This document shows positions 6,086 through 39,586 of a stretch of 64,000 nt of DNA, piece by piece. Made by a program: the position numbers and the translations under genes. The notes below the pieces were generated by a model that made no database searches, was not told the origin of the DNA, and saw only the letters and a list, made by a program, of their open reading frames with translations. The stretch comes from Candidatus Latescibacterota bacterium (GTDB lineage Bacteria > Latescibacterota > UBA2968 > UBA8231): contig OZ220089.1 of NCBI GenBank assembly GCA_964291625.2, positions 4,416,001 to 4,480,000 of the forward strand, written 5' to 3'. Position 1 is the stretch's first letter. Each line of letters opens with the position of its first letter.

Positions 6086-8347
6086 TCACCCCCCCTTCTC
6101 GAAGAGCTGTTCCACCATGCCCAGGGTCCGCGCCTGGGCCTCGGACCGCATGCGCCGGTGGCGCTGCTCCGCGGAGTAGCGCTCGAAGTGGGCCTTGGCC
6201 GCCTGGGCCCGGCCGGTGCGCTGGTAGAGGTGGCCGAGGAACAGGTGCGCCACATGGTCCTCGGGGGCCAGCTCGAGAATGCGCTCGAAGTGGGGCACCG
6301 CCTCTTCGTAGCGGTCGGGCTGCCGGGCCAGCAGCATGCCGAGGCTCCAGCGGGCCTGGAGGGAGCCGGGGTCGGTACGGACGGCGCGGCGCAGGTGTTG
6401 CTCGGCCTCCCGGGTCAGGGGCGTGGCCGGCAGGCTGACCCCGGTGCCCCCGGCCGAGGCCAGATCGACGAGTACCTCCCCAAGCCCCAGATGGGCCCTG
6501 GCCCGGTAGCCTTCCGCTTCCAGCAGCAGCCGGAAATGGACGGCGGCCGAGTCGGGGCGGCCCCGGGCCTGGTGCAGGCGGGCGAGCTGGTAGCGCACCA
6601 GCACGGAGTCGGGCCGGAGCTCAAGGACGCGGCGCCAGGCCCGAGCGGCCTCCTCGGGGCGCCCGGCCGCGAGCCGGGCGTAGGCCAGGCTGCCGTGCAG
6701 GTTCGCCCGCTCGGGGTGCATCTCCACGAGGCGCTCGCCCTCGGCGACGGCCTCGGCGGCCCGTCCGGCCGAGACCAGGGCGGCGGCGAGGTCCCGGCGC
6801 GCGGGCACCGAGTCCGGAGCCCCGGCGAGGTAGCGGCGGTAGAGGTCGACGGCGGAGGCGGGGTTCCCCCCCTCGACCTCCAGGGCGGCCAGGTTCACCA
6901 GCGCCCCCGGGTGTCCCGGATCGAGGCGCAGGGCGGTGCGGTACTCCCGGGCGGCCCCGGCGGGCATCTCCCGGCGCTCGTAGGCGGAGCCCCGCCAGTA
7001 GTGCTCGTCGGCGGGGCTGGCCACCGCCAGCGGGGCCGGTCCGGCGTTGAGGGCCACGCACGCGAGGGCGGTGAGGACGATCCCGGGCCACCGGAGGGGG
7101 CGCCGCGCGAGGGCCCGGGCGCCGTGGCAGGCCACCAGCAACAGGAGCGGGACCACGGGCAGGCGGCAGGGCGGCGCGACGAAGAACAGGACCGCCGCCG
7201 CGGCGTAGACGATCACGAATCCGGACAGGAGAGCGCGTTCCCGGGTGGGCCCACCCGCCGGATCTGCGGGAAAGGCGACGAGGAAGACCAGGCCGGCGAG
7301 GGCCAGGGGGGCCACCAGGCCGAAGGGGAAGGCGAGTCCCCGGTCCCAGAGGAGGGCGGCCAGGACCGGGGACTCGGCCCTGGCGAAGTAGGGGTCGAGA
7401 CCCCGCGGGCTCTCCTCGCCCCGCCAGAACAGGTAGGTCCTGCGGGCCATCAGTCCCGCCCACCCCCAGGGCTCGGCGCGGACGACCTCCCACGAGCGCT
7501 CGAGGAGATGCCGCGAGGACGCGGACAGTCCCTCGCTGCCGGCCTCTCCCGAGGAGGGATCTGCCAGCCGCAGCCGCTCCGGCCCCGGCTGCACGGCCAC
7601 CGTGCGGTCCTCAACGGCGCTGTTTCCGGTGTGGAGGCCGAGGTCGCCGCCGACGACGAGGTTGCGAACCGTGACCGGGGCCACCACCACCGCGCAGCCG
7701 GCGGCGAACCACAACCCCCGCTGCCATCGGAATCCGCGCTCCGACCCCTGCGGCGGGAACCGACACAGCCACCAGAGGACGAAGGGGGCGAGGAGCAGGA
7801 CGGTGGCCACGGTCAGGGCCGAGAGCCCCAGGACAAGGCCGGGCACCGCCCAGCGCCAGGCGGGTTCCGGCGGAGTGCGCAGCAGCAGCCACAGCAGTAG
7901 GAGGTCGAGGAGGCCGGCCAGGGTGACGGGCAGCAGCTCCCCCCCGAAGTAGACGAGGGGTCCGTACAGGGCGGCGGCGAGGCCGGCCCCGAGGGCGACG
8001 GGGGCGGTGAAGAGCCGATGGCCCACCGCCACCAGGAGCCCGCAGGTGGCCGCTCCCAGGGCCGCCTGCAGCAGGCGCGGAAGCCACGGGGACTCGCCGG
8101 CCGAGCCCAGGGCGGCGAGGAGGTAGGGATAGAGCGGGGGTTGCCGGAAGGGCTCCGGCGGGCCGGCCCAGGAGACCTCCGTCAGGTAGCGGGCGTCCTC
8201 GACCCAGGCGGCGGCGTCGAGGACGGGGGCTTCGAAGAGCGGCGTCTGCTCAAGGTAGAAGAGGTGGCCCAGGCGCACAGCGAAGGCCAGGGCGCAGACG
8301 AGCAGGATCCGGCGGAGGGAGGCCGGGGAGGGCGCAGTCGAGGCCAA
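6086..8347 (-). CDS. GT-C fold (PMT/ArnT-like, GT39/83-like) membrane glycosyltransferase-like protein with C-terminal TPRs
   Basis: Multi-TM N-terminal half with PVLDA...PFRQPPLYPYLLA and ALYGPLVYF motifs; C-terminal ~300 aa of TPR repeats. TTG start. Confidence 0.75.
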   Translation of the reverse strand: MASTAPSPASLRRILLVCALAFAVRLGHLFYLEQTPLFEAPVLDAAAWVEDARYLTEVSWAGPPEPFRQPPLYPYLLAALGSAGESPWLPRLLQAALGAATCGLLVAVGHRLFTAPVALGAGLAAALYGPLVYFGGELLPVTLAGLLDLLLLWLLLRTPPEPAWRWAVPGLVLGLSALTVATVLLLAPFVLWWLCRFPPQGSERGFRWQRGLWFAAGCAVVVAPVTVRNLVVGGDLGLHTGNSAVEDRTVAVQPGPERLRLADPSSGEAGSEGLSASSRHLLERSWEVVRAEPWGWAGLMARRTYLFWRGEESPRGLDPYFARAESPVLAALLWDRGLAFPFGLVAPLALAGLVFLVAFPADPAGGPTRERALLSGFVIVYAAAAVLFFVAPPCRLPVVPLLLLVACHGARALARRPLRWPGIVLTALACVALNAGPAPLAVASPADEHYWRGSAYERREMPAGAAREYRTALRLDPGHPGALVNLAALEVEGGNPASAVDLYRRYLAGAPDSVPARRDLAAALVSAGRAAEAVAEGERLVEMHPERANLHGSLAYARLAAGRPEEAARAWRRVLELRPDSVLVRYQLARLHQARGRPDSAAVHFRLLLEAEGYRARAHLGLGEVLVDLASAGGTGVSLPATPLTREAEQHLRRAVRTDPGSLQARWSLGMLLARQPDRYEEAVPHFERILELAPEDHVAHLFLGHLYQRTGRAQAAKAHFERYSAEQRHRRMRSEAQARTLGMVEQLFEKGG

Positions 8348-8371: not shown

Positions 8372-11035
8372 CTACAGGTCGATGCCGGCGTAGGCGGAGA
8401 TGAAGATCGAGTTGACGGTGAGAGTCTCGCCCACCTCGGGCATGCGGCGGTCGATCTTGGCCCCCAGCTGGGTGGTCACGCCGTAGCCGAGATAGGCCGA
8501 GAGGTTGGTGAACTGCACGGCGCCGACGATGCCCCGGAAGTCCCTGGAGTCGCGCAGCATGTCGTTGTGGAAGGTGAACTCCAGGCCCGCCTCAAGATCG
8601 GTCGAGCGCAGCAGGGGGAAGCCCATGAGCAGTCCGCCGAGCTCGGTGAGGGAGCGCTTCCTGTCGTTGGAGATCACGTCGATCGTCTGGTGGCGGAAGA
8701 TGCTCTTCCAGCGCGGCTCGAAGCGGATGTTGCCGATGTCGAAGCGATAGCTGATCCGGTTGATGACGCCGAAGAAGTAGTTCGTCTCGCGCTGGCTGAG
8801 CCGGGCGCGCTCCTCGGCGTCGAGGCGGGACTGGTAGAGGTCCCACTTGAAGAAGTTGTCGGTCTTCCAGCCGCGGTGGTCGTACTTGTGGCCCATCCAC
8901 AAGGTGTTGACGAAGGCGTCGCGCGCCAGCAGCAGGTCCTCGATCTTGGTCGCCTCGCCGGTGCGGATGTTGGCGTTGGGCAGCCACTGCACCAGCTCGT
9001 TCGGGATGTCGTCCTTCACGGACTTGACCATGTCGAAGATCCGCAGCCGGCCCCAGCCGGCGATGTCCCGGTCGATGCTCACCAGGGCGTAATCGGCGTG
9101 GTTCCTCTGGTTCGAGGAGATCAGCCCTTCGCGCAGGATCCCGGCGCTGACGCGGATGTCGGGGGTGACGTTCACGCCGCCGTAGATGTTGAAGCCGCGG
9201 TGGTCCCTGCGGTACGGGTAGTCGGGCTCCTCGTCGTTCTCGAAGCGGTCGATCCAGAAGTTGTTGTTGAGGTCGATGCCGTAGAGGAACTCGGGCCGGT
9301 CCACGTTGTGGCGCAGGAAGGGCTCGTCGTAGTCGGGGATCGAGTTGCTGATGAAGCGGTTGTCGTTCTGGTTGAAGTCGGAGATGAAGTCGTTGTTCTC
9401 GTCCCACCCGGGGAAGACGGTGGGATCGCCCGCCTGCCAGTCCTTGCGCACCGTGTCCGGGAACTGGTCCTGGTCGTCGTTGTCCTCCACCAGCTCGACC
9501 ACGTGGATGCGCTTGTCCTCGTAGTCGATGAAGCCGTCGCCAGAGGCGGTGTAGGTGCTGGTCGAGTAGCGGGGGTCCATGCTGTAGAGCTCGCCCCAGG
9601 CGAACCACGGGTAGCGGTTGCGGGAGATGTTGACCATCCAGGCCTCGGCGGCGCGGTCACCGCGGATTCCGGAGGCGGTGCGGTGGCCCTTTCTCACCAC
9701 GCTCGGGTACTTGCGGTACTTGTAGCTGAGGTCGTACTCGCCGTAGACGTCGAAGCCGGCGACTTTCTTCAACTCCAGGGTGGCGCCCCAGATCTGGGTG
9801 GCCGTGGGCAGTCCGTACTCGAAGGAGACGATCCGCAGGTTGGTGTTGTCCTGGACGTTGCCTTGCGCCTGGGTGACCAGGAGGGCCACGTTGCCCTCGG
9901 ACTGGTTGAGCTGGTTGTCGGAGGTCATCCACACCTGGTAGTCGTTGCCCAGGACATAGCGGAACTCGATTCCGACGATCTCCTCCTTGGAACCGCTGGC
10001 GTGGTTGACGAAGCCGGGGCTGTCGAAGTTGTAGCGCAGGCGGATCTCCTCGGTGCCGTCGGCGGCCAGGAAGCCGTCGCGCTCGAAGCCGCCCTCGATG
10101 ACCGGCGCGAAGCCGATCTGCTTGCCCCGGTCGACGCTGCCGTCGTCGTAGGTGATGATGATGTCCGAGCCGGCGGGGAAGAAGGATGCGCCGCCGCCGT
10201 CCTCGGGGGAGTCGTCGCGCAGGATCACTTCGATCAGGGACAGGGTCTTGTTCTGGTCGACGGTGAGCTCGCCGCTGATGGGGTTGCCGGTGAAGCCGTC
10301 GATGAGGGTGTTCGACTGGTGCGAGTTGACGGCTGTCAATCCCAGGGTGGCGAAGTCGCCCACCTGCACCGTGCCTCGGCCTCCCACCAGGGAGGTGAGG
10401 TTGGTAACGAGGGACTCCTGGTCGCTGGTGCTGCTGCCGCCGGGGCGGCTGAGGCGGGAGTAGAGGACCGTGCCCTGGTACTTGTCGGAGGCATAGTCGA
10501 ACTGCACGCCGTCCCACTGGGGCTTTGAGAAGGTCATGGGGGTCAGGGTCGTGCGGATCTTGGCGCCCATGGTCAGGGCATAGTGGTGCTGACCCTTGGA
10601 GTCGCTGGAGATCAGGACGCCGTCGAACCAGCGGCTGAAGTTGGCGCTCTTCAGCACCGACGAGCCGAACTGCCTGGGCTGGGTCTGGGAGTTGTTGAAG
10701 ATCAGCCAGCCCTTGGTGACGAAGTTGCCGTAGAGATCGTAGTAGTAGTCGCCCTCGCGGGTGACGCTGACGTACCGCTGGTAGTGGTCGCGGGCGTAGT
10801 TGGAGTAGTCCCACTGCCGCCAGCGGTACTCGTTGAACAGCTCCTGGGGGACGTACCATCTGCGAACGGCCGGGTCGAGGGCGCCGTGGAGCACACCCGG
10901 ACCCTGGGGTTGGAAAGAGACCTCGCCGCCGCGCTGGATGTCCCCCATCCGGGCGCCGTAGTCCTGGGCGGCCGAGGGCGCGGCCGGGGCCAGCAGGCCG
11001 AGGGAGCAGAGCGTCGCCAGGCGGAGTATCGTCAT
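8372..11035 (-). CDS. Large secreted, putative outer-membrane protein of unknown family (barrel-like paralog A)
   Basis: Start reassigned to MTILRLATLCSLGLLAPAAPSAAQ. Shares IRTxxTPMT, VNxH, DDSPxD and VEDNDD...FPG.D...PDYxEPFL...DLNNN..ID..END..PDYPY with three genes at 28740-37414. Amphipathic beta-strand C-terminus ending FISAYAGIDL. Confidence 0.85.
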   Translation of the reverse strand: MTILRLATLCSLGLLAPAAPSAAQDYGARMGDIQRGGEVSFQPQGPGVLHGALDPAVRRWYVPQELFNEYRWRQWDYSNYARDHYQRYVSVTREGDYYYDLYGNFVTKGWLIFNNSQTQPRQFGSSVLKSANFSRWFDGVLISSDSKGQHHYALTMGAKIRTTLTPMTFSKPQWDGVQFDYASDKYQGTVLYSRLSRPGGSSTSDQESLVTNLTSLVGGRGTVQVGDFATLGLTAVNSHQSNTLIDGFTGNPISGELTVDQNKTLSLIEVILRDDSPEDGGGASFFPAGSDIIITYDDGSVDRGKQIGFAPVIEGGFERDGFLAADGTEEIRLRYNFDSPGFVNHASGSKEEIVGIEFRYVLGNDYQVWMTSDNQLNQSEGNVALLVTQAQGNVQDNTNLRIVSFEYGLPTATQIWGATLELKKVAGFDVYGEYDLSYKYRKYPSVVRKGHRTASGIRGDRAAEAWMVNISRNRYPWFAWGELYSMDPRYSTSTYTASGDGFIDYEDKRIHVVELVEDNDDQDQFPDTVRKDWQAGDPTVFPGWDENNDFISDFNQNDNRFISNSIPDYDEPFLRHNVDRPEFLYGIDLNNNFWIDRFENDEEPDYPYRRDHRGFNIYGGVNVTPDIRVSAGILREGLISSNQRNHADYALVSIDRDIAGWGRLRIFDMVKSVKDDIPNELVQWLPNANIRTGEATKIEDLLLARDAFVNTLWMGHKYDHRGWKTDNFFKWDLYQSRLDAEERARLSQRETNYFFGVINRISYRFDIGNIRFEPRWKSIFRHQTIDVISNDRKRSLTELGGLLMGFPLLRSTDLEAGLEFTFHNDMLRDSRDFRGIVGAVQFTNLSAYLGYGVTTQLGAKIDRRMPEVGETLTVNSIFISAYAGIDL

Positions 11036-11087
11036 CCTTGAAGGCACGGGTTTCTCCTCGAGGGTTTCGGCTTCCTGGGCGCCGGCT

Positions 11088-14000
11088 TCAGTAGGCGACG
11101 GCGACGGTGCGGACCACGGACCGGCCCGAGTCGCCGCTGTCGACGTCGAGGTGGAGCTTGACGATGTAGATCCCCGGGGGAACGAGGTTGCCGCCGCTGT
11201 CGCGCCCATCCCAGGAGAGGGACTGCAACCCGGGGGCCACGACCCGCTCCTCGCGCCAGACGCGGCGTCCGGCCAGGGTGTAGACGCTCACCCGCAGGCT
11301 GCGCGGATCGGTGATGCGGTAGATCGACAGGCCGATCTCGGTCTGGTCGTTGATGAGGTCCCCGTTGGGCGAGAAGGGATTCGGAGAGATCGTGACCTCT
11401 TCGACCACCTCGCCTTCCAGGGGCACCGAGAGGGTCAGGGTGTTCGACTCCAGGTCCGGCACGGCATCGCCGGCCTCGACGCTCTGCCAGCGGGCCTCCG
11501 GGTCGGCGCCGGCGTTGCGCACGGCCAGGTTCAAGGTGGTGCCGTTGAGGAGCACGGGGGCCTGGAACCGGACGCGCACACGGGGGCCGGGACCGACGAC
11601 CCGGCCGCGCTCGTCGCGGGAGAGCCGGGAGTAGTCGCTGGCGTCCAGGGAGTCGCCGCGGTCATCGAAGGGATACTGGGCGCCGTCCCCCTTCTGCACG
11701 CGGAAGTAGCGCGCCAGCCGCTCGCTTTCGTCCAACTCCTCCCAGGATCGCTGGTCGGTCTCCTGCAACTCCCCGGACTCGAGCCTCCTGAAGTAGAGGA
11801 CCTTCCCCTGCTCGTCGTCGTCGAGCAGCCCCCAGGAAGCGGCCGACAGGAGGATGCCGTCCTGGGTCACGGGGACCTGCATGCTGTCGGCGGTGATGCG
11901 GTAATAGGCCCGGCTGGTGTCGGGCAGGAGCGTCACCGTGTCGGCCAGGCGCACCCAGATCGAGTCGGCCCGCTGACGGACCACGCTCAGGCGATCGCCG
12001 CCGCCGTCCGCGTAGCCGCCGTCGGGGCCGCGGGTGAACAGGCGCCGCTCCCCCTCCCGGCCCCCGTCGATCTCCATCTCGATCAGCTCCATCCGGCCGG
12101 AGGCGGGCATCGACAGCAGGAGCTCGTCGAAGCCGAGGCTGGGCGCCGGCCGGGAGATGAACCTCGGCTGCAGGAAGACGTCGAAGGTGTCGATGCGGCC
12201 CACGGCGGGCACCTCGGTGGGCGTGATCTCCGCCAGGATGCGCTCGGCCACCGGGTTTAGGAGCTCGACGCGGATCGAGCGGATGGCGGCGGCCAGATCC
12301 CGGTCGGTCGTGGTCAGGCGGACCTGGATCTGGGCGAAGCGGCGCAGTCCCGGCGAGGTCACGCGGTCGCCCTGGCGCTCGTAGGCCCGGCTCCAGGAGG
12401 ACCACCCGGCGGTGGGCACGAGGGTCGTGTCCACCGGGCCCTTGAAGCTGCCGATGAGGTTCTTCCAGGCGGTGTAGGCGATCTCCTGTCCCTGCCTGTC
12501 GAAGTAGCGTACGATCCGGCCCAGCAGGTCGCCGGAGCGGGTGCGGATCTCCATGCCGGTGCCGGGGGGCACGTCGGCCTCCCAGGTGATGGCGCCGAAG
12601 TGGCGCGGACCGGGCAGCTCGATGAGGTCGGAGGTCAACAGGACCTCCGCGGGATGCCCCTTCGAGAAGAGCTGATACTCGGCGATGGTGGGGCCCGTGT
12701 TGTAGCCTCCGCGCCGCCTCGGGTCGACGGAGACGATGCTCACTTCCAGGAAGCGCAGCGGCGGCAGGTCGTACGGGTCCAGGAGATTCTGGAAGCCGGA
12801 GACGCTGTTGTCCTCCCGGCTGCGCGGGCTGATCCGCGTCCAGTTGATCCGGCCGCTGGCGTCGAGGGAGCCGTCCGACCCGCGCACGATGTAGCCGTCG
12901 ATGTAGGGCCGCGGGCGGGAGGTGGATATGCGCATGGCGTCCAGCCAGAAGGTGGCGGCCAAGTCGACGGTCAGGACCCCGCGGTCGATGGTGGGCGACC
13001 AGACCAGGTGCAGGAAATTGGTGGAGTAATCGCCGTCGAAGCCCGGGCCGGGGGCGAAGGTGCCACCCGTGAGGAAGACGCTGCCGCCGCCCTCGATGAT
13101 GCCGGGGCTGATGTTGTCCCCCGCTCCCCAGATCTCGACATCGGCCAGGCGGGGGCGTTCACGCCGGTAGTAGTCGCGGCGCCCCTGGCGGTCGGCGCCG
13201 AGGGACTCGTAGACCTCCCGCTCCACCGGCTCCTCGGTGCCGGCCAGGTCACGGATGTAGTAGAGGATGTCGCCGCGGTCCCCCGGGTCCAGGGCGAGCC
13301 AGGCCTCCTCGCCGTCGAGGAGCTGGCCGCGCCCCTGACGCGAATCGGTGACCACGACCCGTATCGTCTGCACCATCCGTCCCGTCCACTCGGCGCTGGA
13401 GCGGTGCAGCGGGAAGTCGAAGGAGAAGGTGCGCTCGCTCTCGTTCGGCGCCTCGGTGCCCCCGACGCGAAAGAAGTCGATGCGGTCGGCGTCCTGGGCG
13501 ACGGGTTCCTGATCGGGGGCGGCGAGGAGGCGGAACTGCCGGAAGGGATCGCCGAGGTCCTCCTCGACGAAGTGGAGCCGCAGGGTGTCCACGGGGACGA
13601 CCCGCCCCAGGTCGATCTCCAGCCACCAGTCGTCGACGGGGTCGCGGGGGTCGGGCTCCCACCAGGTGCTCGGATCGCCGTCGAGGACATTGGCGGCGGC
13701 CTCCGGGTTCGAGCCGACGCGGCTGATCCCGGGGCGCAGGAAATAGGTGTAGATCGGATTGTCCTTGCGGTCGAGGATGATCTCGCCGCGCACGTCGAGG
13801 GTCTCGGTGCTGTCCACGTTCAGGATCGCCGTCTCGCCCTTTGACCTCTTCAGCCCGGGCAGGGTGCGGGTGAAGGTCTCCCGGTCGTCGAGGATGTTGA
13901 AGCGATCGCGGAAGCGGTGGGGAATCACGCTGCCATCGGCATTGAGGTCGACGGCGTGGACGGGCACGCTCCAGCGCTGCCAGTGCCGGTGGCTGTCGAC

Positions 14001-14229: not shown

Positions 14230-14258
14230 ATTTAGTGAAGGGCCCTCTGGTCTGTCAA
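14230..14258 (-). promoter_or_regulatory. Putative internal promoter for 11088-14138 and downstream genes
   Basis: TTGACA (14253-14258, containing the upstream TGA stop)-N17-CTAAAT. Confidence 0.4.
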
Positions 14259-19712: not shown

Positions 19713-19877
19713 TGCGGAGTCTTCTCAGGGCATGTCGAGATGGGGAGGGGCGGAAAGGTGGGGTCCGGATCGGGTGGATCGAGGCAGGAGATCCCACCCG
19801 AGCAGGAATCCACCCATGTCTGCGGGGGCGACCGCGGGGAGCACCCGAAGGCGGAGAAGCCAGGCCCCCCGTGGGAG

Positions 19878-20288: not shown

Positions 20289-20290
20289 CT

Positions 20291-20704: not shown

Positions 20705-20722
20705 GGTCCGCGCGCCGGGAGC

Positions 20723-21466: not shown

Positions 21467-21514
21467 CTGTCCGTCTCCTTGTGATCTCTGGAAGTTGATG
21501 CTCCGAGGCAGTCC

Positions 21515-24451: not shown

Positions 24452-24494
24452 GCTCACCACCTTGATGCGGGGTCGCCAGGATCATCCCCCGATT

Positions 24495-24881: not shown

Positions 24882-24906
24882 GAGGACTCCCTTCTCCCTT
24901 CCGGCA

Positions 24907-25464: not shown

Positions 25465-25488
25465 GGGGACCTCACGAATTGGAGTTGC

Positions 25489-28737: not shown

Positions 28738-28739
28738 CC

Positions 28740-31700: not shown

Positions 31701-31817
31701 CGGCAGGATGCGCACCGGGCCCAGGGCCGGGTGTTCGGGCCGGTCTTCCTCCTCCTCCTGGGCCGTCACCGGAAGGGAGACCAGCAGCATCAGGCCGAAG
31801 ATCAGCCACAACCTCAT
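28740..31817 (-). CDS. Barrel-like paralog B (unknown family)
   Basis: Start MRLWLIFGLMLLVSLPVTA (GAGGAGG RBS); LRSKFTPLT, VNAH, DGSPQD, VEDNDDNDRYPD...VFPGLD...PDYLEPFL...DLNHN..ID.REND; ends FINVILGFEEETY. Confidence 0.85.
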   Translation of the reverse strand: MRLWLIFGLMLLVSLPVTAQEEEEDRPEHPALGPVRILPDQPFIGRIGRQDYRNYGFEDYSRRPVATSNLSHRYNLLGDPLVYGTQSIRWVESRGLGTSRGYSSVSEGGSHGTGRGGTDYAPPGGSFANLFNYVMVGSDGTDSWQARAIYANELRSKFTPLTFKMSNVDGLRLDVGTEHDKFSALFSNLTPTGGGFIVPTTMVGAHYERKVGFLNFGTSFVNAHQFEHQMSNRHQSLKGSVGNIQRPTAMVAVRISDGSPQDGRDGPVFHGFKVYVNGELRPEADVFVLRLNQRGAGRTTYVAGLLDEGKDNERRRPLEPDYQTINKGAVFNSFAVYINYAAFDTDAYYRGYEHPYFIDHLYFRDFARYGPDHEYEEGVTVHNQFAHELAEPDGAFALITESDLPQAFDGEEYAILYVDLEPFQEQINSVDIDLELSRDYHVEVSEIDLAGKPDDLFFMNPRERYNYASFFRTVASAPGNSRSDNIEKVRVKVGASTGLSLYSANVYGVFKGFEIDGEFSRSNSYYQYASGIPGPRVYPSDGGQTVNALRREENPGAHSSIDDNAYYLTVKRDFRRFGVGGEVFSMGAHFNTELRSHIGRSEVNFGNPVVYNNTYLHRLVEDNDDNDRYPDTWYTNRPFIWNGQSDLDGVFPGLDEDNDGVPDTNRDFDATPDYLEPFLTYDVDPQIFDYGADLNHNDYIDARENDLQPDLPYDPGLRGRHVYGTFKPITGAQMTLGLLDAEQIAAGDPNESLYARLGYERRIPSLGRFKGALFTERVRDGVEDPLSVYSDEVLTAAEQLRREFGGFQRNIRISPFLEVPREDPLLFKNSTYSRFFVDARWTTLPGLNLHNKVKYEINQQHDGELYDGTLQEGRTLSRWAMVHRLDYLWPIRPKLSLFSGLKYRFLREWQTGDVTTQHERHIIPILKLNYDLTLRTRLQFGVEGLGSLLPYSVVDLAQPENDFEQYDYVLMLTNNSKYFGYILSTNAGLSRRNRVFDEPAVAQVKDEKFTAVFINVILGFEEETY

Positions 31818-31902
31818 GCCGGCCTCCTCGGCCTGACGCCGGCCTCGGACCGCGCGGCGGCGCTCCCATCTGCCCGCCATGTCGGTGATCGCTCTCATGG
31901 GA

Positions 31903-34716
31903 TCAGAACTGGGGCCTCAGGCCGACGATGACGCGCAGGAAGAGACGGGAGAGATCGATGTCCTGATCGCCGCGGGTCTCGTCCAGGAAGGTCCGGAGGC
32001 GCTTCTCGTAGCCCAGGTTGACGTTGATCTGGTAGCCCACGTAGGTCGAGGTGTTGCTCAGCAGCGCCAGGTAGACCTGGGAATCGAAGTCGACCCCCGG
32101 GGCCGCCTCGTTGCGGTACGTGGCCGGGAGGAAGGGGAAGCCCTGTGCGCCGAGCTTGATCTCGGTGCGTGAGGAGAGGGGGTACTCCAGCCTCAGGATC
32201 GGGTAGACGTAGTCCTCGGCGATTTCCAGGATCCGCTCCTCGTCGTCCTGCAGGCGCTGCCGCATCCACTTGAGCTGGGGAACGACACGCAGCCGGCTCC
32301 AGGGATTCCACGTGTAGTCGGCCTTGAACACGGTGGCCAGGTCGGAGATGCTGTTCTCGGGCTGCAGGTCGGTGCTCTGCTGGAGGTTGGTCTCGTACTT
32401 GATCGACAGCTCGACATTGAGGTTCGACGTGCCGATGTAGCGCGTCCTCGTGTAGAGCGTGTTCACCCAGCTGTCGCGCATGGTCAGCGGGTCTCTCAGC
32501 AGCTCCGCCTCCCCCAGGGGATTGAAGATCTGCTCCTCCGTGAGGGGGACGATGGATATGATGTCCGGCTCGAAGTAGATGGGGTCCCGCCCCAGGCCGA
32601 AGATGTCGTCGGCCACATCGTCCCGCACGCGTTTGAGCCGCTCCACCCCGTAGATCTCCGCCAGGAAAGGGATCCGGCGCTCGTACTCGACCTTGCCGTA
32701 GGTCGCCTCGGCCCGGCCGCCTCCGAATAGCGCCCAGGACCTGTGATGGCCGGCGGTCACGGTGGCCCGGCCGTGAAAGAGCCGGGAGAACCCGTGGAAT
32801 CCGCGGCGGTCGATGTCGTAGGGGTAATCGGACTTCAGATCGTTTTCACGCTCGTCGATCTTGCCGTTGTTGTTGAGGTCCTCGCCCCACTCGTAGGCGT
32901 CGGGATTGACCTTGTAGAGCAGGAAGGGCTCGTAGTAATCGGGGATCAGGTTGCTGTTCTCGTTGATGTCCGGGCGGCCGTTCAGGTCGGCGTCCAGCCC
33001 GGGGAACACGCCGTCCGGATCCTGGATGAAACGTCCCCCCGTTTCCGGGTTGGTGGTCTTGCGCAGGTAGTAGGTGTCCGGGTACTGGTCCTTGTCGTCG
33101 TTGTCGTCGACGGTGTCGAACTCGCGCGTGTAGGTCTGGTCGGTGATGTTGCGGCCGATCTTCGTCGGCAGCCGCGGCTCGTGAATCTGCTGCGGGTAGT
33201 TGAAGGGCGCCGAGGGGAAGCCGGCGCTGGTGTTGAAAGCGTCGTCCTGCACCGTCAGCACGGTGGAATAGTCGGCGTCCACGTTGAACACCTCGCCGCC
33301 GACGGAGAAGCCATTCCAGTCGCGCCGGAGCACGGCGAACCAGGCCTGGCTGTCGTTCTGGTAGTGCTCGAGCTCCGTGCTCAACAGCGCCGGATAGGCG
33401 CGGAAGGCGAAGTTGCGCACGTACTCCGTGTGCAGCATGAAGCCTTTGACGTCCAGGTTCAGGTGGGCGCTGGCCAGGGTGCGGCCGGTCTGGCGGCCGT
33501 AATGGGCCCGTACGCGGCGGAAGTCGGCCAGGTTGTCCGGCCGGCCCCGCGACCGGGCAGCGGTGTAGAAGTAGGTCGCCGGGTTGTTGGAGATGCCGTC
33601 GAAGACCTCCGACAGCTCGATCACGTAGTCCCCGGCCACGTCCAGGTCGACGTAAGCCTGGTTGATCACGTCGGCCTCGCCGGCGTCATCGAAGGCGTGG
33701 GGGACCCGGAACCAGAAGAGCAGGCTCCCCGGGCCGCGGGTCTCGTAGAAGCCCTGGGGTGTGGGGGACACGTGGTCGTGCTCTATGATGGGATCCTGGG
33801 CATCCCGCCAGAGGATCGGCGGGATGATCGTCCGGTCGGAGTGCTCGGTCACCGTGAGGGTAGGGGCGTCCGGATCCAGGTTGTCATACGGTCCGAGATG
33901 GTGCTGCAGCCGGCGCCCGTTGAGGGTGATGGCGGGCACCTTGACGCGCACGCCCACCTCGTCGTCGGGCTCCTGATCGGCCACCCTCACGACGATCCAC
34001 TCGGGAGGGGCGCCGGTGGTCGGGAGGGTGCCCTTCCAGCTGTTGTCGTTCAGATCCTTGAAGCTGTCGGTGCGGTACTGGTTGACCCAGCTCAACCCCA
34101 TGTCCAGGCCCGGCAACTGGGTGCGCAGGTCGCCGCCGAGCAGGTAGGTCGCCCATCGGGGCCGGGTCTCGTAGCGCTCCTCCACGCCGTGGACGCGGTG
34201 GTCGACGTTCTGCTGCCCCAGGGCCTCGAAGATCGGCCGGTCCACGCGGGAGACGGCCAGGATCAGGGAGCCGCTCTCGAAGCTGGTGTCGAAGCGCAGT
34301 CCGTTCATCGACGCCATGTCGAGGGTCAGGGAGGTGAACTTCGTGCGCACGTGGTCGCCGATGATGAGCTTGCTCGTGGCCCCGGCGTAGGCGTCGTCGG
34401 CGATGAGCAGGCGGTTCAGGTAGTTCTGGTAGAGCCTGGGCTTGGAGATGAGGGTGCCCGGCGCGGGTGCGACCGTCCGAGTCTCCTGGAGCTTGAAGAC
34501 CTGGGTGCCGTTCATCACGAACTGGCCGAGGGGATCGAAGACGGGCAGGCGGTCCCGGGCGAAGATCAGGTTCTGGTAGCTGCGGTAGCCCTCGTAGGCA
34601 TAGTTGACGTACGGCTCCCCGGGCTTGAACAGGAGCTGGGCCTCGCCGGGGGATGCCGTCAGGGTCACCAGCCAGCAGGCCGCGGCTACCGCCGCATGTC
34701 GAAGGATGGGCGTCAT
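31903..34716 (-). CDS. Barrel-like paralog C (unknown family)
   Basis: Signal peptide; GDHVRTKFTSLT, VDDNDDKDQYPD...VFPGLD...PDYYEPFL...DLNNNGKIDEREND..DYPY; ends FLRVIVGLRPQF. Confidence 0.85.
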   Translation of the reverse strand: MTPILRHAAVAAACWLVTLTASPGEAQLLFKPGEPYVNYAYEGYRSYQNLIFARDRLPVFDPLGQFVMNGTQVFKLQETRTVAPAPGTLISKPRLYQNYLNRLLIADDAYAGATSKLIIGDHVRTKFTSLTLDMASMNGLRFDTSFESGSLILAVSRVDRPIFEALGQQNVDHRVHGVEERYETRPRWATYLLGGDLRTQLPGLDMGLSWVNQYRTDSFKDLNDNSWKGTLPTTGAPPEWIVVRVADQEPDDEVGVRVKVPAITLNGRRLQHHLGPYDNLDPDAPTLTVTEHSDRTIIPPILWRDAQDPIIEHDHVSPTPQGFYETRGPGSLLFWFRVPHAFDDAGEADVINQAYVDLDVAGDYVIELSEVFDGISNNPATYFYTAARSRGRPDNLADFRRVRAHYGRQTGRTLASAHLNLDVKGFMLHTEYVRNFAFRAYPALLSTELEHYQNDSQAWFAVLRRDWNGFSVGGEVFNVDADYSTVLTVQDDAFNTSAGFPSAPFNYPQQIHEPRLPTKIGRNITDQTYTREFDTVDDNDDKDQYPDTYYLRKTTNPETGGRFIQDPDGVFPGLDADLNGRPDINENSNLIPDYYEPFLLYKVNPDAYEWGEDLNNNGKIDERENDLKSDYPYDIDRRGFHGFSRLFHGRATVTAGHHRSWALFGGGRAEATYGKVEYERRIPFLAEIYGVERLKRVRDDVADDIFGLGRDPIYFEPDIISIVPLTEEQIFNPLGEAELLRDPLTMRDSWVNTLYTRTRYIGTSNLNVELSIKYETNLQQSTDLQPENSISDLATVFKADYTWNPWSRLRVVPQLKWMRQRLQDDEERILEIAEDYVYPILRLEYPLSSRTEIKLGAQGFPFLPATYRNEAAPGVDFDSQVYLALLSNTSTYVGYQINVNLGYEKRLRTFLDETRGDQDIDLSRLFLRVIVGLRPQF

Positions 34717-34717
34717 C

Positions 34718-37414
34718 TCAGCCGATGAAGATCCTGAAGAAGTACTGCAGGGAGCCGCTGCCGGGCCGCTCGGATCCGGTGTACTGATACTCGACGCGGT
34801 AGGTGCCCATGAGCAGGACCAGGTCGTAGCCCAGGTAGTTGCTCCGGTTCTGGATCATCGCCGTGTAGGTCAGGCGCGTGTACTGACTCTCGGGCCGCAC
34901 CGCGTAGGAGACCTTCTCGCGCCAGAAGGGGAACCCCTGGATGCCGGTCTTGAGCTCGGTCCTGGGGGTGATCTCGTAGTCGGCGCGCAGAATCGGCATG
35001 ACCCGTCGGCTCTGGGAAGAGGGCAGTTGCCGCTCCGGCGAGGTGCTGCGGTAGTAGAGGTGCTTGAACTGGGGCCGGACGGTCAGCCTTCCCCGCCTCC
35101 AGGTGTAGTCGATCTTGTTCATCATCGAGACGCCGGTGTAGCGGCCCGGCCTGGTGATGAAGGGATCGGCCACGGGGTCCCCCTCCAGCTCGGAGAAGCC
35201 GAAGGTGATGATGTTGCGGAGGTTGACCTCGGGCACGGCCATCAGGCCGGTCTCGAAGAAGGTGTAGTTGCTGACCGTGTCCCGGCTTCCCAGCCGGTCC
35301 GGTCGGAGGGAGCCGACGCTGCCGATGTTGTAGACCGTGTTGCGGATGTCGTCCTCCATCCACTTGACCCGGTGGTTCAGCCGAAGGTAGCCCAGTCCCG
35401 GCCAGTCCCGGCGGTACTGCCCCTCCACGTACTGGGTGCTGTTGCGGCCCCCGACGACCGGCTGGCGCACCCGGTACCACCCCGTCTTCAACTGGGTCCG
35501 CTGGCTCACCTCCACGGTGCCGAAGGCGTGGAAGCCGCGGTGGTCCTGGGGGTAGGCGTAGTCCGGCAGGTTGTCGTTCTCGCGGTAGTCGATGACCCCG
35601 TTGTTGTCGAAGTCGTCGCCGTAGACGAAACCGGACGGCTCGGAGTAGTAACCGAGGAAGGGCTGGCCCGAATCACCGCCGTGCTCGAGGTCCAGGTTGA
35701 AGTCCAGGACCCCGTCGTTGTCCGGATCGAGGCCGGGATAGACGCCCTTGCCGGGATAGCCGAACTGGCCGGCCAGGGGGTCGGAGTAGGGAGCCAGGGG
35801 ATCGTTGTGCTCCACCCGGTCGGGCCAGAAGTCGAGATCGTCGTTGTCCTCCACGAGGGCGAAGGGCGTGTAGAGCCTGCCGCCGACGGACTTCGTGGTG
35901 CGCTGGTTCAGGAAGAGGGGGAACTCCGTGGTATAGTCGTCGGGAACGTCGAAGTACTCGAAACCGAGCCCGGTCCGTTTGCCCACGGGGCGGCTGAGCC
36001 GGAAGTAGAAGGTCGAGCTCTCCCGGCGGTGGCGCTCGGCATCACGGTTGGGGACCTGGAGGAAGCGCAGGCTGCGGGCGAATTCCCCCTCCAGCTGGAA
36101 CCCCAGGGCCTTGAGGTCCCAGTCGAGACCGGCGATGGTCAGACCCGTGGGGAAGCCGTAGCGAAAGTCGACCCGGCGCCGGTTCGATCCCTCCCCGGGG
36201 CGGCCCCTGGCGCGCCGGGCGTTGTACCAGTCGTAGTAGAAGTCGTCCTCGCCCGGGGCCAGGATCGGCACCTGCATGGCCCCCACCACGTCGACGTTGT
36301 AGTCGTCGGCGAGGACGGCGCTGAAGTCGAGGGCGGCCACCGTGTCCGGGATCTCGTACTCGAAGTAGACCACGTCGGTCCCGTCGGCGCGCAGGGGCGC
36401 TCCCCGGGTGGCCAGGGCCTCGGCGGTGATGTCGGTGGTGATGTCGTCCAGCAGGGAGGCGAAGAACCGGTCGCGGCTGGCCTCGACCACGGCCCGCAGC
36501 CAGGAGCGGTTGCGGCGGAGGTAGTCGACCTCGTGGGGCTCGAGCAGGATGGTGCTGGTCGGATCGGAGGTGACCGGGATCTGGCTGATGAGCCCGTCGA
36601 TCCGGCCCACCCGCATAGGCATCACCGGTGTGCCGTCGACGGTCATGGTCAACTCGTGGACCGCGGCGCCCGCGAAGGCGTCGTGGGGGGAGTCGTCGGA
36701 GAAGAACACGAAGACCTTGCGCAGGCCCCCCCGCATGACCCCGGGTATCGTCCCCTTGAGGCTGTTGACCTTGGCGGCGGCCTCGGAGTCGAAGCGATGG
36801 GCGTTGACGTAGGTGGTCCCCAGCTTGAGGAGGCCGCCGATCTGGCTCTCCCAATGGACGCCGAAGAGGCTGCCCCCCCAGATCCGGCGCTCCTCGATGT
36901 TCTGGTCCACCGCCAGGCCCCCGCCGAGAACCACCGGGTCCCGCAGGTGGCTGGCGATGACGCTGAAGCGGCTCTTCCGGGAGGCGCCGTCCCAGCGGAT
37001 CCCGTTGTAGTTGGGCAGGTTCAGCGTCATGGGGGTGAAGAAGGTGCGGATGTGGTCCCCGATGATCAGGCGCGTTGACCAGTTGCCGAAGCCCTCGTTG
37101 GCGATGACCAGCTTCTTGAAGAAGCGCTCGTAGCGGGCGTTGCGGGTCTCGAAGCTGCCCCGGATGCCGGGGGCGTCCCGCCGGATCTCGCTGTACTCGA
37201 TGATGTCGACGCCGTCGATGAGGAGATCGCCGAAGAGGTCGAAGCGCCGGTTCTCCTCCTCCAGGTCGTAGTCCCGGTATCCCGCGGCCCCGTAGTTCTC
37301 GAAGATCTGGTTGGCCCAGAGCCGCCGGAAGTCCCGGGACAGGAACTGCCCATCCGCCAGGTCCGGCGTCAGCCACAGCAGGGTCAGGAGGGTGAGGGCG
37401 AGGGGGGCGCGCAT
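34718..37414 (-). CDS. Barrel-like paralog D (unknown family)
   Basis: Signal peptide; GDHIRTFFTPMT, YVNAH, DDSPHD, VEDNDDLDFWPD...VYPGLD...DFDNNGVIDYREND.LPDYAY; ends FFRIFIG. Confidence 0.85.
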   Translation of the reverse strand: MRAPLALTLLTLLWLTPDLADGQFLSRDFRRLWANQIFENYGAAGYRDYDLEEENRRFDLFGDLLIDGVDIIEYSEIRRDAPGIRGSFETRNARYERFFKKLVIANEGFGNWSTRLIIGDHIRTFFTPMTLNLPNYNGIRWDGASRKSRFSVIASHLRDPVVLGGGLAVDQNIEERRIWGGSLFGVHWESQIGGLLKLGTTYVNAHRFDSEAAAKVNSLKGTIPGVMRGGLRKVFVFFSDDSPHDAFAGAAVHELTMTVDGTPVMPMRVGRIDGLISQIPVTSDPTSTILLEPHEVDYLRRNRSWLRAVVEASRDRFFASLLDDITTDITAEALATRGAPLRADGTDVVYFEYEIPDTVAALDFSAVLADDYNVDVVGAMQVPILAPGEDDFYYDWYNARRARGRPGEGSNRRRVDFRYGFPTGLTIAGLDWDLKALGFQLEGEFARSLRFLQVPNRDAERHRRESSTFYFRLSRPVGKRTGLGFEYFDVPDDYTTEFPLFLNQRTTKSVGGRLYTPFALVEDNDDLDFWPDRVEHNDPLAPYSDPLAGQFGYPGKGVYPGLDPDNDGVLDFNLDLEHGGDSGQPFLGYYSEPSGFVYGDDFDNNGVIDYRENDNLPDYAYPQDHRGFHAFGTVEVSQRTQLKTGWYRVRQPVVGGRNSTQYVEGQYRRDWPGLGYLRLNHRVKWMEDDIRNTVYNIGSVGSLRPDRLGSRDTVSNYTFFETGLMAVPEVNLRNIITFGFSELEGDPVADPFITRPGRYTGVSMMNKIDYTWRRGRLTVRPQFKHLYYRSTSPERQLPSSQSRRVMPILRADYEITPRTELKTGIQGFPFWREKVSYAVRPESQYTRLTYTAMIQNRSNYLGYDLVLLMGTYRVEYQYTGSERPGSGSLQYFFRIFIG

Positions 37415-37444
37415 GGATTTCCCGAGAGTGGCTGGTCCCCGACC

Positions 37445-39586
37445 CTAGTAGGCGACTCCGACCACGCCCGTGGCCACCTCGTCCGGTTCCAGATCGACGA
37501 CGATCCGATACAGGTAGAGCCCCGGCGGCGCCAGCCTGCCCTCGTCATCCAGGCCGTCCCAACGACCCGGGAGGGCCTCGTCCCGGGCGGCGATCGGGGA
37601 GTAGTTGCCGGGGTTGAGGCGGCTCGGCGGCAGGCTGCGCACCAGTCGGCCGCCGACGTCGTAGATCTCTACATGGACATAAGACCCTGACACCCGCCCA
37701 AGGGTGAAGCCCAGGACCGCGAAGTCGTTGGCGCCGTCCCCGTTGGGGGTGAAGACCCCGGGATGGGCCTGCACGTGGTCGAGGATGGGGATGTCGAAGT
37801 CCGCCGCCTCGGCAACGGTCGTGTACGGGAGCTCGGTGGCCGGATCGGTCCCCTGGCGCCTGTCGATCTGGAGGGAGGCGGCCTGCCCCGGAGCGAAGAC
37901 CAGCGCCTTGAACTCGTGGTTGGCGGAGAGCAGGCGCGTGGTGAAGGGGATGACGACCTCCGTCGTCCCGGTAGCCGAGGTGATCGGCGGGTCGAAGGTC
38001 AGCACGAGGGAGTCGGAGGTGGCGTAGCTGGAGGCGATGGCCGCCTCTCCCAGACCTTGCACGCCGCCGGCCTCGAGCCGGGCCGGCCAGGGGGTCAGGA
38101 TGGCCAGACGCTCCACGCCCGCATCGTCCTCCCCCACCTCGAGCTGCAGGGTATAGGTGAAGAGCGTATCGACACCGATGGACGCCCGCGCCGGGGAGAT
38201 GGAGCCGGCCGCAAGGGTGGCGGGAAAGGGACCCTCCTCGAACCAGATCACCAGGCTGTCCAGCCGCGGCGTGGCGTCGAGGATCCGGGCCAGCATGCGC
38301 GCCTCGAACTGGAGGTAGTTCCGCGGCTCGGGCACGGTCAGAGCGACCTCGGACCGGCCGCTCCAGGGCGACCACTCGCTCCAGCTCTCCCCGTCGTCGC
38401 CGCTGCGGAAGCGAAGCTCCATCTCGGTGTTGTCGGGGACCTCGCCATGGCGGACGGCGCGCTCGAAGTTCTTGGTCGTCGAGGTGCCCAGGTCCAGCGG
38501 CGGGGAGAGGTATGATCCCCTGTCGTCCCGCCCCCGGGCGAAGACCTCCAACTCGCCGACTTTGGGGTTGGCGTCCCTCGAGCTGAACTCGGTGATGTAG
38601 AGCCTGACGTGACGGGCAGGGGTCGGCGGAAAGGAGACCTCGCTCTCGCGGTAGGTCGTGATCTGGTGGCGCGCCCCCACTTCGCGGTATCCGATGCCGT
38701 TCTGGCTGATCAGGACGCTGTAGCCTCTCAGGGAGAGGTCCTCGTAGGTGTCGTTGCGGCCCGGGGGCTCGGTGATGACGCGCACCCGCTCCAGGAGCAG
38801 GAGCCGGCCGAGGTCGGTGCGGAAGCCCTGCCCCAGGGAAGCCGATCCCTTGCGGAAGGCGACGCCCTTGGTGATGTCACCATCCACGAGGTTCGGGTCG
38901 GAGGTCCGGGAGTTGAGGGCCATGTTCTGGCCCTCCAGACTGCGCAACTGCAGCCCCTGCTCCTGGCCCGACAGGCCTCCCGGGAAACCGGCGACACTGC
39001 CGGCCCGGGTCAGGTCGAGATCCTCGAACTCCACGAAGTCCCCTGGCTCCAGGGTCCCCTGCTGCGCGGCCTGCCAGGTGATGAGCCGCCCGTCCTCCTC
39101 GTGCTCGTCCAGCTTGCTCAGCTTCAGCTTGGTCCAGCCGTCCTCCTCGTTGGGCAGGCGATCTCCGGACCAGAACCAGGGCATGGAGCGGTCCGTGGGA
39201 GAGCTTACGAACTGCTCCGTCTCCCCGTCGACGACGAGATAGACGCCGTACGGGCTCAGGGTGCCGTCGTGGTCGACGACCACGGCCACCTGGTTCTCCT
39301 TCCTCTTGAAAGAGAGGTCGGTCCAGACCTCGACGGTGACGGGATCGTCATCGCTCCCCACCAGCTCGCCGTTGAGGTAGAGGGAATAGGTCCCGCCCGC
39401 GGTGATCCGGATCTGGCCGTCCTGCTTCTCGAGAAACTCGGGGAAGCCGAGGTAGTGAGTCGTGGAGGGCCAGGTGGAGATCGAGACGCTGGACAGGTCC
39501 TGGGCGGCGAGCCCGCTGCAGGACAGGAAGAGTCCCGCAGCGGCCAGGGCTCGCGCCCAACGGCCGGGGTGTCTGGAATTCTTCAC
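37445..39586 (-). CDS. Secreted discoidin-like + FlgD-Ig protein (paralog 4)
   Basis: GTG 39586 with GAGGT RBS (alternative ATG 39616); LVDGD...TDLGRLLLLERVRV, LSPPLDLG, LRFRSG..WSEWS, NYLQ, FTPNGDGAND, WDGLDDEGRLAPPGLYLY; ends VVGVAY. Confidence 0.85.
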   Translation of the reverse strand: MKNSRHPGRWARALAAAGLFLSCSGLAAQDLSSVSISTWPSTTHYLGFPEFLEKQDGQIRITAGGTYSLYLNGELVGSDDDPVTVEVWTDLSFKRKENQVAVVVDHDGTLSPYGVYLVVDGETEQFVSSPTDRSMPWFWSGDRLPNEEDGWTKLKLSKLDEHEEDGRLITWQAAQQGTLEPGDFVEFEDLDLTRAGSVAGFPGGLSGQEQGLQLRSLEGQNMALNSRTSDPNLVDGDITKGVAFRKGSASLGQGFRTDLGRLLLLERVRVITEPPGRNDTYEDLSLRGYSVLISQNGIGYREVGARHQITTYRESEVSFPPTPARHVRLYITEFSSRDANPKVGELEVFARGRDDRGSYLSPPLDLGTSTTKNFERAVRHGEVPDNTEMELRFRSGDDGESWSEWSPWSGRSEVALTVPEPRNYLQFEARMLARILDATPRLDSLVIWFEEGPFPATLAAGSISPARASIGVDTLFTYTLQLEVGEDDAGVERLAILTPWPARLEAGGVQGLGEAAIASSYATSDSLVLTFDPPITSATGTTEVVIPFTTRLLSANHEFKALVFAPGQAASLQIDRRQGTDPATELPYTTVAEAADFDIPILDHVQAHPGVFTPNGDGANDFAVLGFTLGRVSGSYVHVEIYDVGGRLVRSLPPSRLNPGNYSPIAARDEALPGRWDGLDDEGRLAPPGLYLYRIVVDLEPDEVATGVVGVAY

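Follow-up and report, generated by a model that had tools for sequence, protein, structure and literature searches.

A two-module envelope locus of a Latescibacterota bacterium with giant putative outer-membrane barrels, type IX-like tailed proteins and an ExbB-ExbD motor

The stretch of DNA considered here (the window) comprises 64,000 nt of a Candidatus Latescibacterota genome (GCA_964291625.2, contig OZ220089.1, positions 4,416,001 to 4,480,000), and coordinates given without a contig label are those of the whole window; the host genome amounts to 5.9 Mb in two contigs (C1 and C2). The window carries a run of genes for envelope proteins, in which giant putative outer-membrane (OM) barrels are found together with secreted proteins ending in a V-x-V-x-Y tail and with an ExbB-ExbD motor. 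A first-pass annotation, made from the sequence alone, had taken the run for a single candidate undescribed system, energized by ExbB-ExbD and devoted to export or assembly at the OM. Genes were called by combining a frame analysis of GC content at third codon positions (GC3) with a listing of open reading frames (ORFs), domains were assigned with Pfam and NCBIfam, and the starts of g10, g13 and g18 were revised.

The locus and its two modules

The run consists of 19 genes (g01 to g19), all on the minus strand, between 39616 and 6086. With the chosen starts, the intergenic gaps are of 49 bp or less at 16 of the 18 junctions, including one 4-bp overlap (the gap from g09 to g10 rests on an assumed start of g10), and the two wider gaps are those between g13 and g14 (165 bp) and between g16 and g17 (116 bp). 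The first-pass annotation was therefore right as to the co-orientation, the order and the close spacing of most genes, and Pfam agrees with it on ExbB, the two ExbD proteins, the double PpiC protein, the tetratricopeptide repeat (TPR) proteins, DUF4159, FG-GAP/UnbV_ASPIC and, weakly, the FlgD-type tails of g01 and g17. Four other assignments stand in part. The small membrane protein g06 (24907–25464; 185 aa) has one transmembrane segment by hydropathy, but its match to DUF5683 (5.7e-5; 23.6 bits) is below the cut-off of 26.7; g07 (24495–24881; 128 aa) is a putative lipoprotein with a lipobox recognized by eye, but it matches no Pfam or NCBIfam family, so that the fibronectin type III domain once proposed for it is unsupported; the CsgG/FlgT-like character of g10 (21515–22531; about 300–338 aa, start uncertain) is suggested by language-model features only, with Pfam silent (atlas score 0.93, 182 of 256 features common to CsgG clusters, neighbourhood in the CsgG/LpoB/TolB_N clan); and in g19 (6086–8347) the TPR part and seven transmembrane segments (by hydropathy) are found, while the GT-C-like glycosyltransferase part of this polytopic protein amounts to a weak PMT_2 match (4.3e-4).

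The range first assigned to the cluster (6086–39586) is too narrow, kin genes being found at 39751–41721 (minus strand), 3977–6064 (plus strand) and 1694 to about 3772 (minus strand). Nor is the cluster one 19-gene system: it is made of two juxtaposed modules, which extend beyond both edges of that range. Module A comprises the gene at 39751–41721 (up1), g01, a triplet of barrel genes (g02–g04), the TPR gene g05, g06, g07, the DUF4159 gene g08, g09, g10 and the ExbB-ExbD-ExbD genes g11–g13, and it is conserved across Latescibacterota. Module B comprises g14–g19, that is, in order, PpiC, TPR, FG-GAP, tailed protein, barrel of the B945 type and GT-C/TPR, together with the two tailed genes at 1694–6064; it adjoins module A in near-identical genomes only, and at least seven further, paralogous loci of this type are present in the host genome. 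The two modules are distinguished because a locus of the same genus, with a 97%-identical g08, is without g14–g17, and the 165-bp gap between g13 and g14 marks the seam.

The same picture emerges from a survey of related loci, in which 80 loci around DUF4159 homologs were fetched, 52 of them full length and forming the basis of all counts. A counterpart of the 1082-aa TPR protein g05 is present in 51 of the 52, one of g09 in 48 and a barrel in 46; barrel, TPR protein and g09 occur together in 44, and these three with ExbB in 25. Of the 52, a single one has a PpiC gene in addition to the DUF4159 core. The synteny proposed as a check of the first-pass annotation is, thus, kept for the core of module A, but g14–g19 are not kept alongside it. 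Further copies of module A in the host genome lie at C2:41731-66526, C1:8181-26521 and C1:354521-372785; the C2 copy has the same parts in shuffled order and, in addition, a DUF4340 protein (2.3e-42), encoded at C2:58908-60251 directly after ExbD2, of which there is none in the window copy.

The barrel family and the tailed proteins

The putative barrels of module A are g02 (34718–37414; 898 aa; B898 clade, SH-aLRT 100), g03 (31903–34716; 937 aa) and g04 (28740–31898; 1052 aa, the true start being probably an internal Met ahead of the signal peptide), which occupy positions 1, 2 and 3 of the triplet, respectively; that of module B is g18 (8372–11038), which is of the B945 type and 888 aa long from its revised start, its homologs having 872–934 aa. 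The four are full-length paralogs with 24–31% mutual identity and match no Pfam and no NCBIfam family, and their homologs, which come from Latescibacterota or bins that bear the label Gemmatimonadota, are all named 'hypothetical protein'. Judged from sequence comparison, the barrels are a new, previously undescribed OM protein family, in agreement with the first-pass annotation.

The AlphaFold2 (AF2) model of g03, based on a 30-row alignment (pLDDT 72.9, pTM 0.75), is almost all beta, with low confidence for residues 32–101 (about 70 N-terminal residues) and for the Asp-rich residues 544–590. Its fold matches (Foldseek, VIA-align) are OM barrels only, namely SlpA, MtrB, LptD, SprA, porins, BamA, ushers and TonB-dependent receptors (TBDRs). 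SlpA is matched with E 2e-8, a TM-score of 0.23–0.25 and Z 14, SprA with Z 12.2, and Z values of 9–13 are reached by TBDRs, the PapC usher, BamA and porins, so that the matches are generic to barrels; no specific relative emerged, TM-scores not exceeding 0.25 and Z values of 9–14 being spread over unrelated barrel classes. From the model, g03 is predicted to be a large barrel of the OM with no near relative among solved structures, since the fold matches are all OM barrels yet have low and generic scores, and the barrel nature of the large paralogs, which the first-pass annotation had set as a test of itself, is upheld to this extent. The profile of the family finds nothing below E 0.1 among PDB sequences, and no plug domain is recognizable in the barrels, for which Pfam gives neither Plug nor TonB_dep_Rec. 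A stretch rich in Asp and Asn (DNDD and DxDxDG-like repeats), at about residues 536–640 of g03 (window about 32800–33110) and conserved in all barrels, resembles, by eye, calcium-binding repeats.

The family is large. Searched against 1.84 billion representatives, the profile retrieves 994 proteins with E ≤ 0.001, each representing a cluster at 50% identity, of which 323 reach E ≤ 1e-30; the matches listed are strong family members only, and no bridge to a known family is readable there. In the host genome 31 profile matches come down to 23 called genes for barrels, spread over about 11 loci, and a quick tree of the 23 genes separates a B945-type clade of 11 members from three clades of four, which correspond to triplet positions 1, 2 and 3 (SH-aLRT 100, 100 and 99). 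Among relatives, first-look candidates number 20–86 per genome. Of 151 sampled genomes of the phylum, 94 contain the family, including all 63 of the host's own family of genomes, and it is found in none of those of families f2 (0 of 30), f3 (0 of 19), f4 (0 of 2) and f8 (0 of 5).

The tails of the secreted proteins in the host genome fall into two classes: about 89 proteins end in ...LTLLK/R, and the second class ends in [VIL]x[VIL][AVST]Y, a motif that terminates 27 of the 3755 called proteins, 24 of which have the tail domain. To the first class belongs up1 (39751–41721, minus strand; 656 aa; FlgD_ig 1.3e-19), the first gene of module A, a secreted protein ending in ...TLLK with a type A sorting domain (TIGR04183, 28.1 bits versus a cut-off of 23), which has a counterpart in orthologous position in the three other module A copies of the genome. 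The window encodes four proteins of the second class. They are g01 (37445–39616; 723 aa), which combines an F5/8 type C domain with a tail of the CHU_C type that ends in VVGVAY; g17 (11088–14138; 1016 aa), in which a galactose-binding-like/F5/8 type C domain is joined by a CHU_C tail with the terminus VAVAY; the product of 3977–6064 (plus strand, convergent with g19; 695 aa), ending VVSVVY and matching CHU_C at 5e-6; and that of 1694–3772 (minus strand; about 692 aa), with a signal-peptide Met at about 3772. The last two lie where an ORF of 1448 aa (1694–6040, minus strand) can be read; this is a high-GC antisense read-through artefact, because GC3, which switches frame near 3900, shows two real genes, at 1694 to about 3772 (minus) and 3977–6064 (plus).

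Aligned, the class-2 tails have in common the motifs FTPNGDGIND, WDGRD and PPGxY. Scanned alone, all 24 match CHU_C (PF13585) at E ≤ 0.01, the best at 4.1e-11, and the g17 tail gives 31.0 bits versus a cut-off of 27; the NCBIfam model of the type B sorting domain is not among the matches of g17 (E ≤ 0.001) or g01 (E ≤ 0.01). On the strength of these profile matches, the V-x-V-x-Y tails are classed as CHU_C domains, i.e. as members of the signal family of type B cargo of the T9SS (type IX secretion system). Their genes are tied to those of the barrels: none of the 24 tailed genes is more than 15 kb away from a barrel gene, and none of the 23 barrel genes more than 6 kb from a tailed one, the barrel often being directly downstream, so that the specific link between tail and barrel is supported by proximity. 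Across the phylum sample, a strong tail match (E ≤ 1e-25) is obtained in 92 of the 94 barrel-positive and in 1 of the 57 barrel-negative genomes (exceptions G003, G044 and G030), and the strong DUF4159 type is found in the same families as barrels and tails. From the genomic pairing we infer that barrel and tail may bind physically. A complex prediction for g18 (residues 24–888) with the g17 tail (130 aa) scored 0.01 and 0.00 versus a mark of 0.32, which speaks neither for nor against binding.

Motor, periplasmic parts and T9SS context

The stator of module A is encoded by g11 (20723–21466), of the ExbB/TolQ family (PF01618, 1.6e-28; 99.4 bits versus 22.9), and by two ExbD/TolR paralogs, g12 (20291–20704; PF02472, 9.8e-27) and g13 (19878–20252; 2.2e-30), which are 32% identical to each other, score 94.0 and 105.8 bits versus 25.4, and both retain the transmembrane aspartate (by eye). 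The best NCBIfam models are TolQ and TolR, all far below the equivalog cut-offs (86.7 bits versus 221 for TolQ, 61.6 and 58.5 bits versus 127.3 for TolR). Adjoining ExbB/ExbD in several arrangements is g08 (23219–24460; 413 aa), which has the shape of TonB, i.e. a transmembrane helix (residues 34–52) that a linker of some 145 aa connects to a head, here DUF4159 (4.5e-30), the only solved relative of which is a structural-genomics entry, PDB 4i66; this architecture makes g08 a candidate force transducer. Next to it, g09 (22425–23207) encodes a lipoprotein of about 260 aa that always follows the DUF4159 gene; its AF2 model (pLDDT 89.3) is a beta-sandwich for which the PDB gives no match at E ≤ 0.001, the best being YjhA (2.5e-3). 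The giant TPR protein g05 (25489–28737; 1082 aa; TPR_6 8.5e-57, YfiO 3.2e-18) has an N-terminal hydrophobic anchor and repeated CpoB/YbgF-like and BamD-like TPR units (TIGR02795, 210 bits versus 90.1, in five repeated stretches), with a sub-threshold match to PorW/SprE (104 bits versus 250).

That this motor comes without TonB, TBDR, TolB and Pal, as had been noted, is confirmed by Pfam scans of the cluster and by the genome-wide positions of TonB_C and PF00593. No cluster protein contains TonB_C, PD40, TolB_N, OmpA, FHA or VWA domains according to Pfam. The only two TonB_C matches of the genome are at C1:4131840 and C2:790633, a canonical one being encoded beside another ExbBD pair, and none of its 25 PF00593 matches lies in the window, about 22 canonical TBDRs being encoded elsewhere.

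The first-pass annotation had also set the cluster apart from the T9SS. This does not hold in the light of the CHU_C tails, the type A domain of up1 and the presence, outside the window, of SprA (PF14349, 112.8 bits; a 2052-aa gene product, C1:98462-104620), of a PorV-like protein (114.2 bits versus a model cut-off of 250) and, beside the gene of the latter, of a 1259-aa PorU-like protein (Peptidase_C25 3.2e-76). Reminiscent of g06, a protein with weak similarity to DUF5683 (5.2e-4; C1:1092852-1093775) is encoded in the neighbourhood of the genes for the PorV-like and PorU-like proteins. Searches for GldM (TIGR03517, PF12081) and for PorP/SprF (PF11751) gave no match in the host genome, in the former case with no positive control and in the latter with no control genome positive, so that neither absence is established; likewise, none of the 151 phylum genomes has a PF12081 (GldM_1st) match above the cut-off, the sensitivity of this model being uncertain for want of a positive control. 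SprA_N is found in 143 of the 151, including barrel-negative families.

Module B opens with g14 (18069–19712), a double parvulin-type peptidyl-prolyl isomerase (PPIase) lipoprotein (Rotamase_2 1.8e-20, Rotamase 3.4e-16) that has five paralogs, every one beside B945-type barrels; it is followed by g15 (16570–18066), a 498-aa TPR lipoprotein recognized by Pfam, and g16 (14255–16573), which combines TPR, FG-GAP (FG-GAP_3 9.4e-41) and UnbV/ASPIC (UnbV_ASPIC 6.7e-14). On the other side of the cluster lie a transglutaminase-like gene (42733–44976, minus strand; Transglut_core 8.1e-5), which reappears in related loci from other genomes, where it lies between the genes for DUF4159 and TPR proteins and is read from the opposite strand, and the gene of a polytopic, OPT-like inner-membrane protein with DUF6785/DUF6784 (44492–46840, plus strand; 6e-131; probable start 44891; at least 11 transmembrane segments by hydropathy), whose neighbours in the language-model atlas include a cluster with OPT in 11% of its members. 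The remainder, 46828–64000, contains very large ORFs of high GC3, e.g. 46828–50085 (minus), 49628–53743 (plus) and 60444–63998 (plus).

Interpretation, rival explanations and known systems

In the reading that we tentatively prefer, and which we hold to have slightly less than an even chance of being correct, tailed proteins and barrels form cognate pairs of cargo and barrel on the logic of type B T9SS cargo, and a Ton/Tol-like motor serves the triplet. On this view, the window contains a pair of neighbouring units that belong to a modular, Latescibacterota-specific envelope system, and each of the two encodes one to three Sec-exported, lectin-domain proteins with a CHU_C signal ending in V-x-V-x-Y and, directly downstream, either one B945 barrel gene or three, of the B898, B937 and B1052 types. 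The barrels would be the cognate OM partners of the tailed proteins, a role comparable to that of PorP/SprF in Bacteroidota, the cargo leaving the periplasm through the SprA translocon of the genome and then being held at the surface by its own barrel. In Flavobacterium johnsoniae, type B cargo needs a cognate PorP/SprF shuttle, the gene of which is usually directly downstream, according to the passages drawn upon from PMC12618676 and PMC9143113. Module A would add a proton-driven ExbB-ExbD1-ExbD2 stator, the transmembrane DUF4159 protein, the giant CpoB/BamD-like TPR protein, lipoproteins and the CsgG-like protein, which may constitute a periplasm-spanning link that delivers energy to a complex of the three barrels.

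Several observations weigh against this reading. Of the 44 full-length loci that have the core, no more than 25 contain ExbB at a distance of up to 10 kb, and module B is without a motor. The barrels exceed PorP/SprF, of about 300–400 aa, roughly threefold in size, and their profile has a hhalign probability of 0.15% against the host's own SprA and of 0.25% against its PorV-like protein. In g08 there is no transmembrane histidine of the kind found in the SHLS motif of TonB/TolA, nor is one conserved in four aligned paralogs (by eye). The neighbouring OPT-like permeases and glycan enzymes point to uptake instead. The phyletic co-occurrence of barrels and tails reflects a few clade-level events and carries no statistic, because the sampled genomes are related. 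Finally, in the barrel-negative families f2 and f3, SprA is present in 29 of 30 and 19 of 19 genomes, without the strong DUF4159 type and without detectable GldM; therefore, the module A motor cannot simply be the T9SS motor of the phylum, and the idea that it is a phylum-wide replacement of GldLM for SprA was rejected on this ground. A bolder version, namely that in Latescibacterota ExbB-ExbD1-ExbD2, a DUF4159 transducer and the giant TPR protein, acting on a hetero-trimeric set of giant barrels, replace GldLM and PorP/SprF for surface proteins with type B tags, is regarded as unlikely; if true, the display or secretion of proteins would here, for the first time, be powered by a motor of the Ton/Tol type, and the barrel-only satellite loci of module B would share that motor in trans.

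In the main rival explanation, the barrels would be energized importers of a system akin to polysaccharide utilization loci (PULs), with the tailed lectin-domain proteins as surface binders of substrate, in the manner of SusD or SGBPs beside SusC, the transmembrane DUF4159 protein in the place of TonB, and the DUF6785/OPT-like proteins as permeases. This explanation, which we consider rather less probable than not by a good measure, would account for the number of barrel loci (about 11 here, and the 20–86 first-look candidates per relative), for the F5/8 type C and galactose-binding domains of the tailed proteins, for the 10 of 25 DUF6785 paralogs that have a barrel gene no farther than 13 kb away, and for the 72 neighbours, which include PcRGLX lyase-like proteins (2), GlcNAc 2-epimerases (2), GDSL proteins (3), a sulfatase (1) and DPPIV/PD40 proteins (2); moreover, import across the OM is what ExbBD-type motors classically power. 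It sits less well with barrels lacking a plug domain or TonB box, with most barrel loci being without a motor of their own, with a genome that already encodes elsewhere the canonical TBDRs and a TonB-ExbBD locus, with the 15 of 25 DUF6785 paralogs that are not near barrels, and with carbohydrate-active enzymes that are sparse in comparison with the PULs of Bacteroidota. The export or assembly function first proposed is one of several candidate functions: the roughly 11 loci and the OPT-like permease neighbours fit nutrient capture equally. In agreement with surface display are the tails with their secretion signal, the PPIase and the GT-C-like gene; in agreement with capture are the lectin domains, the multiplicity of loci, the OPT-like permeases and some glycan or peptide enzymes. 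The two are compatible if the cargo displayed by the barrel captures substrate.

The tight pairing of tails and barrels would also fit, in line with the first-pass annotation, a new self-contained secretion and assembly system, independent of the T9SS, in which ExbBD-driven barrels are themselves the translocons of the V-x-V-x-Y-tailed proteins. The alternating-hydrophobic, aromatic C-terminal end resembles, by eye, the beta-signal of OM proteins, PPIase and GT-C-like genes are at hand in module B, SprA, LptD and the PapC usher are among the fold matches of g03, and GldM is over cut-off in none of the 151 genomes; yet the tail belongs to a recognized T9SS signal family, SprA, the PorV-like protein and the PorU-like protein are present in the genome, the barrels of module B come without a motor, and the fold matches are those of barrels in general, so that we deem such a system improbable. 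Very improbable, in our estimate, is a machine resembling Tol-Pal or the Agl-Glt core, which would serve OM tethering, surface transport or gliding, with barrels and tailed proteins as anchors or adhesins. The one TolQ-like and two TolR-like genes, the giant TPR protein and the TPR lipoprotein match the Agl-Glt core layout as given in the part of PMC3169522 used here, and likewise the TPR-tolQ-tolR-tolR-transducer operons of PMC12204202, in the sections concerned; the CpoB/YbgF repeats of g05 are above cut-off, and the neighbours of g10 belong to the CsgG/LpoB/TolB_N clan. However, TonB_C, FHA, the TolB propeller and OmpA_C/Pal are missing from the cluster according to Pfam, gliding_GltE scores 67.9 bits for g15 and 54.2 bits for g19 versus a cut-off of 225, no Glt family model reaching its cut-off, and multiple divergent copies per genome would be unusual for a housekeeping tether.

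No published description of the system was found in the full-text literature on Latescibacteria type IX secretion, on DUF4159 with ExbB and on DUF6785, and to that extent the claim of an undescribed system is supported; the Latescibacteria genome analysis of 2015, in the portion available, reports a standard TonB system and porins only. What the window contributes is the division of the cluster into modules A and B, a class of tails recognized as CHU_C, the association of these tails with barrels both throughout the genome and across the phylum, and the three clades of the triplet. The results define, for a phylum that is widespread yet uncultured, a large undescribed OM family, with 994 cluster representatives and about 23 copies here, and the C-terminal tail that goes with it; they also connect three usually separate fields, namely sorting signals of the T9SS, motors of the Ton/Tol type whose transducer is not TonB, and nutrient capture by multiple loci. 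If the pairing is physical, it would be a second way of holding type B cargo at the surface, and the phylum as a whole raises the question of what powers SprA where GldLM is unrecognizable. Runs labelled sponge metagenome hold DNA near-identical to window 18000–39700 (shares 0.59, 0.50 and 0.43); therefore, the system may bear on how these symbionts process host or algal polymers. Contigs from four RNA libraries of three studies cover 26–30 of 30 bins of 19800–39700, and some bridge gene junctions; their use as proof of an operon was rejected, as such contigs show no transcript, strand or level and may stem from DNA carry-over.

Among known systems, those of the Ton/SusCD type share with the cluster the ExbB/ExbD stator, many loci of a substrate-specific type, surface-binding proteins whose genes adjoin that of a large barrel, and inner-membrane permeases in the vicinity, but the cluster is without TonB_C, plug or TBDR signature, and the canonical Ton parts are elsewhere in the genome. 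With Tol-Pal it has in common a stator whose best models are TolQ and TolR and the CpoB-like repeats of g05; the scores, however, are far below equivalog level, and TolA, TolB and Pal are lacking. The vWA-headed transducer operons (Williams-Jones et al. 2025, PMC12204202, as far as the sections used go) have the same TPR-tolQ-tolR-tolR layout, with the difference that the head is here a DUF4159 domain without VWA match and that g08 has no conserved transmembrane histidine; DUF4159 and Latescibacterota have 0 occurrences in the main text of that paper. The Agl-Glt core (aglR, aglQ, aglS, gltD, gltE, gltG and gltC), in the relevant passages of PMC3169522, also has one TolQ-like and two TolR-like proteins, a TPR protein of about 1100–1200 aa, a TPR lipoprotein and a candidate transducer with a transmembrane anchor, and is likewise modular, duplicated within genomes and of obscure role outside gliding bacteria; it differs in that the head is DUF4159 here, and not TonB_C/FHA, and that the OM partners are giant barrels and T9SS-type cargo. 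From type B cargo and PorP/SprF of the T9SS the system departs in its unrelated partner barrel of about 900–1050 aa with a calcium-repeat-like, Asp-rich insert, in the conserved triplets of module A, in the invariant V-x-V-x-Y end and in an ExbBD motor within the locus, GldM and PorP being undetected (no positive control). It shares with them, as they are described for F. johnsoniae and Porphyromonas gingivalis in the parts of PMC12618676 and PMC9143113 considered, a cargo end of the CHU_C family and a partner barrel gene directly downstream, and, further, many cognate pairs per genome in a host that encodes SprA, a PorV-like protein and a PorU-like protein.

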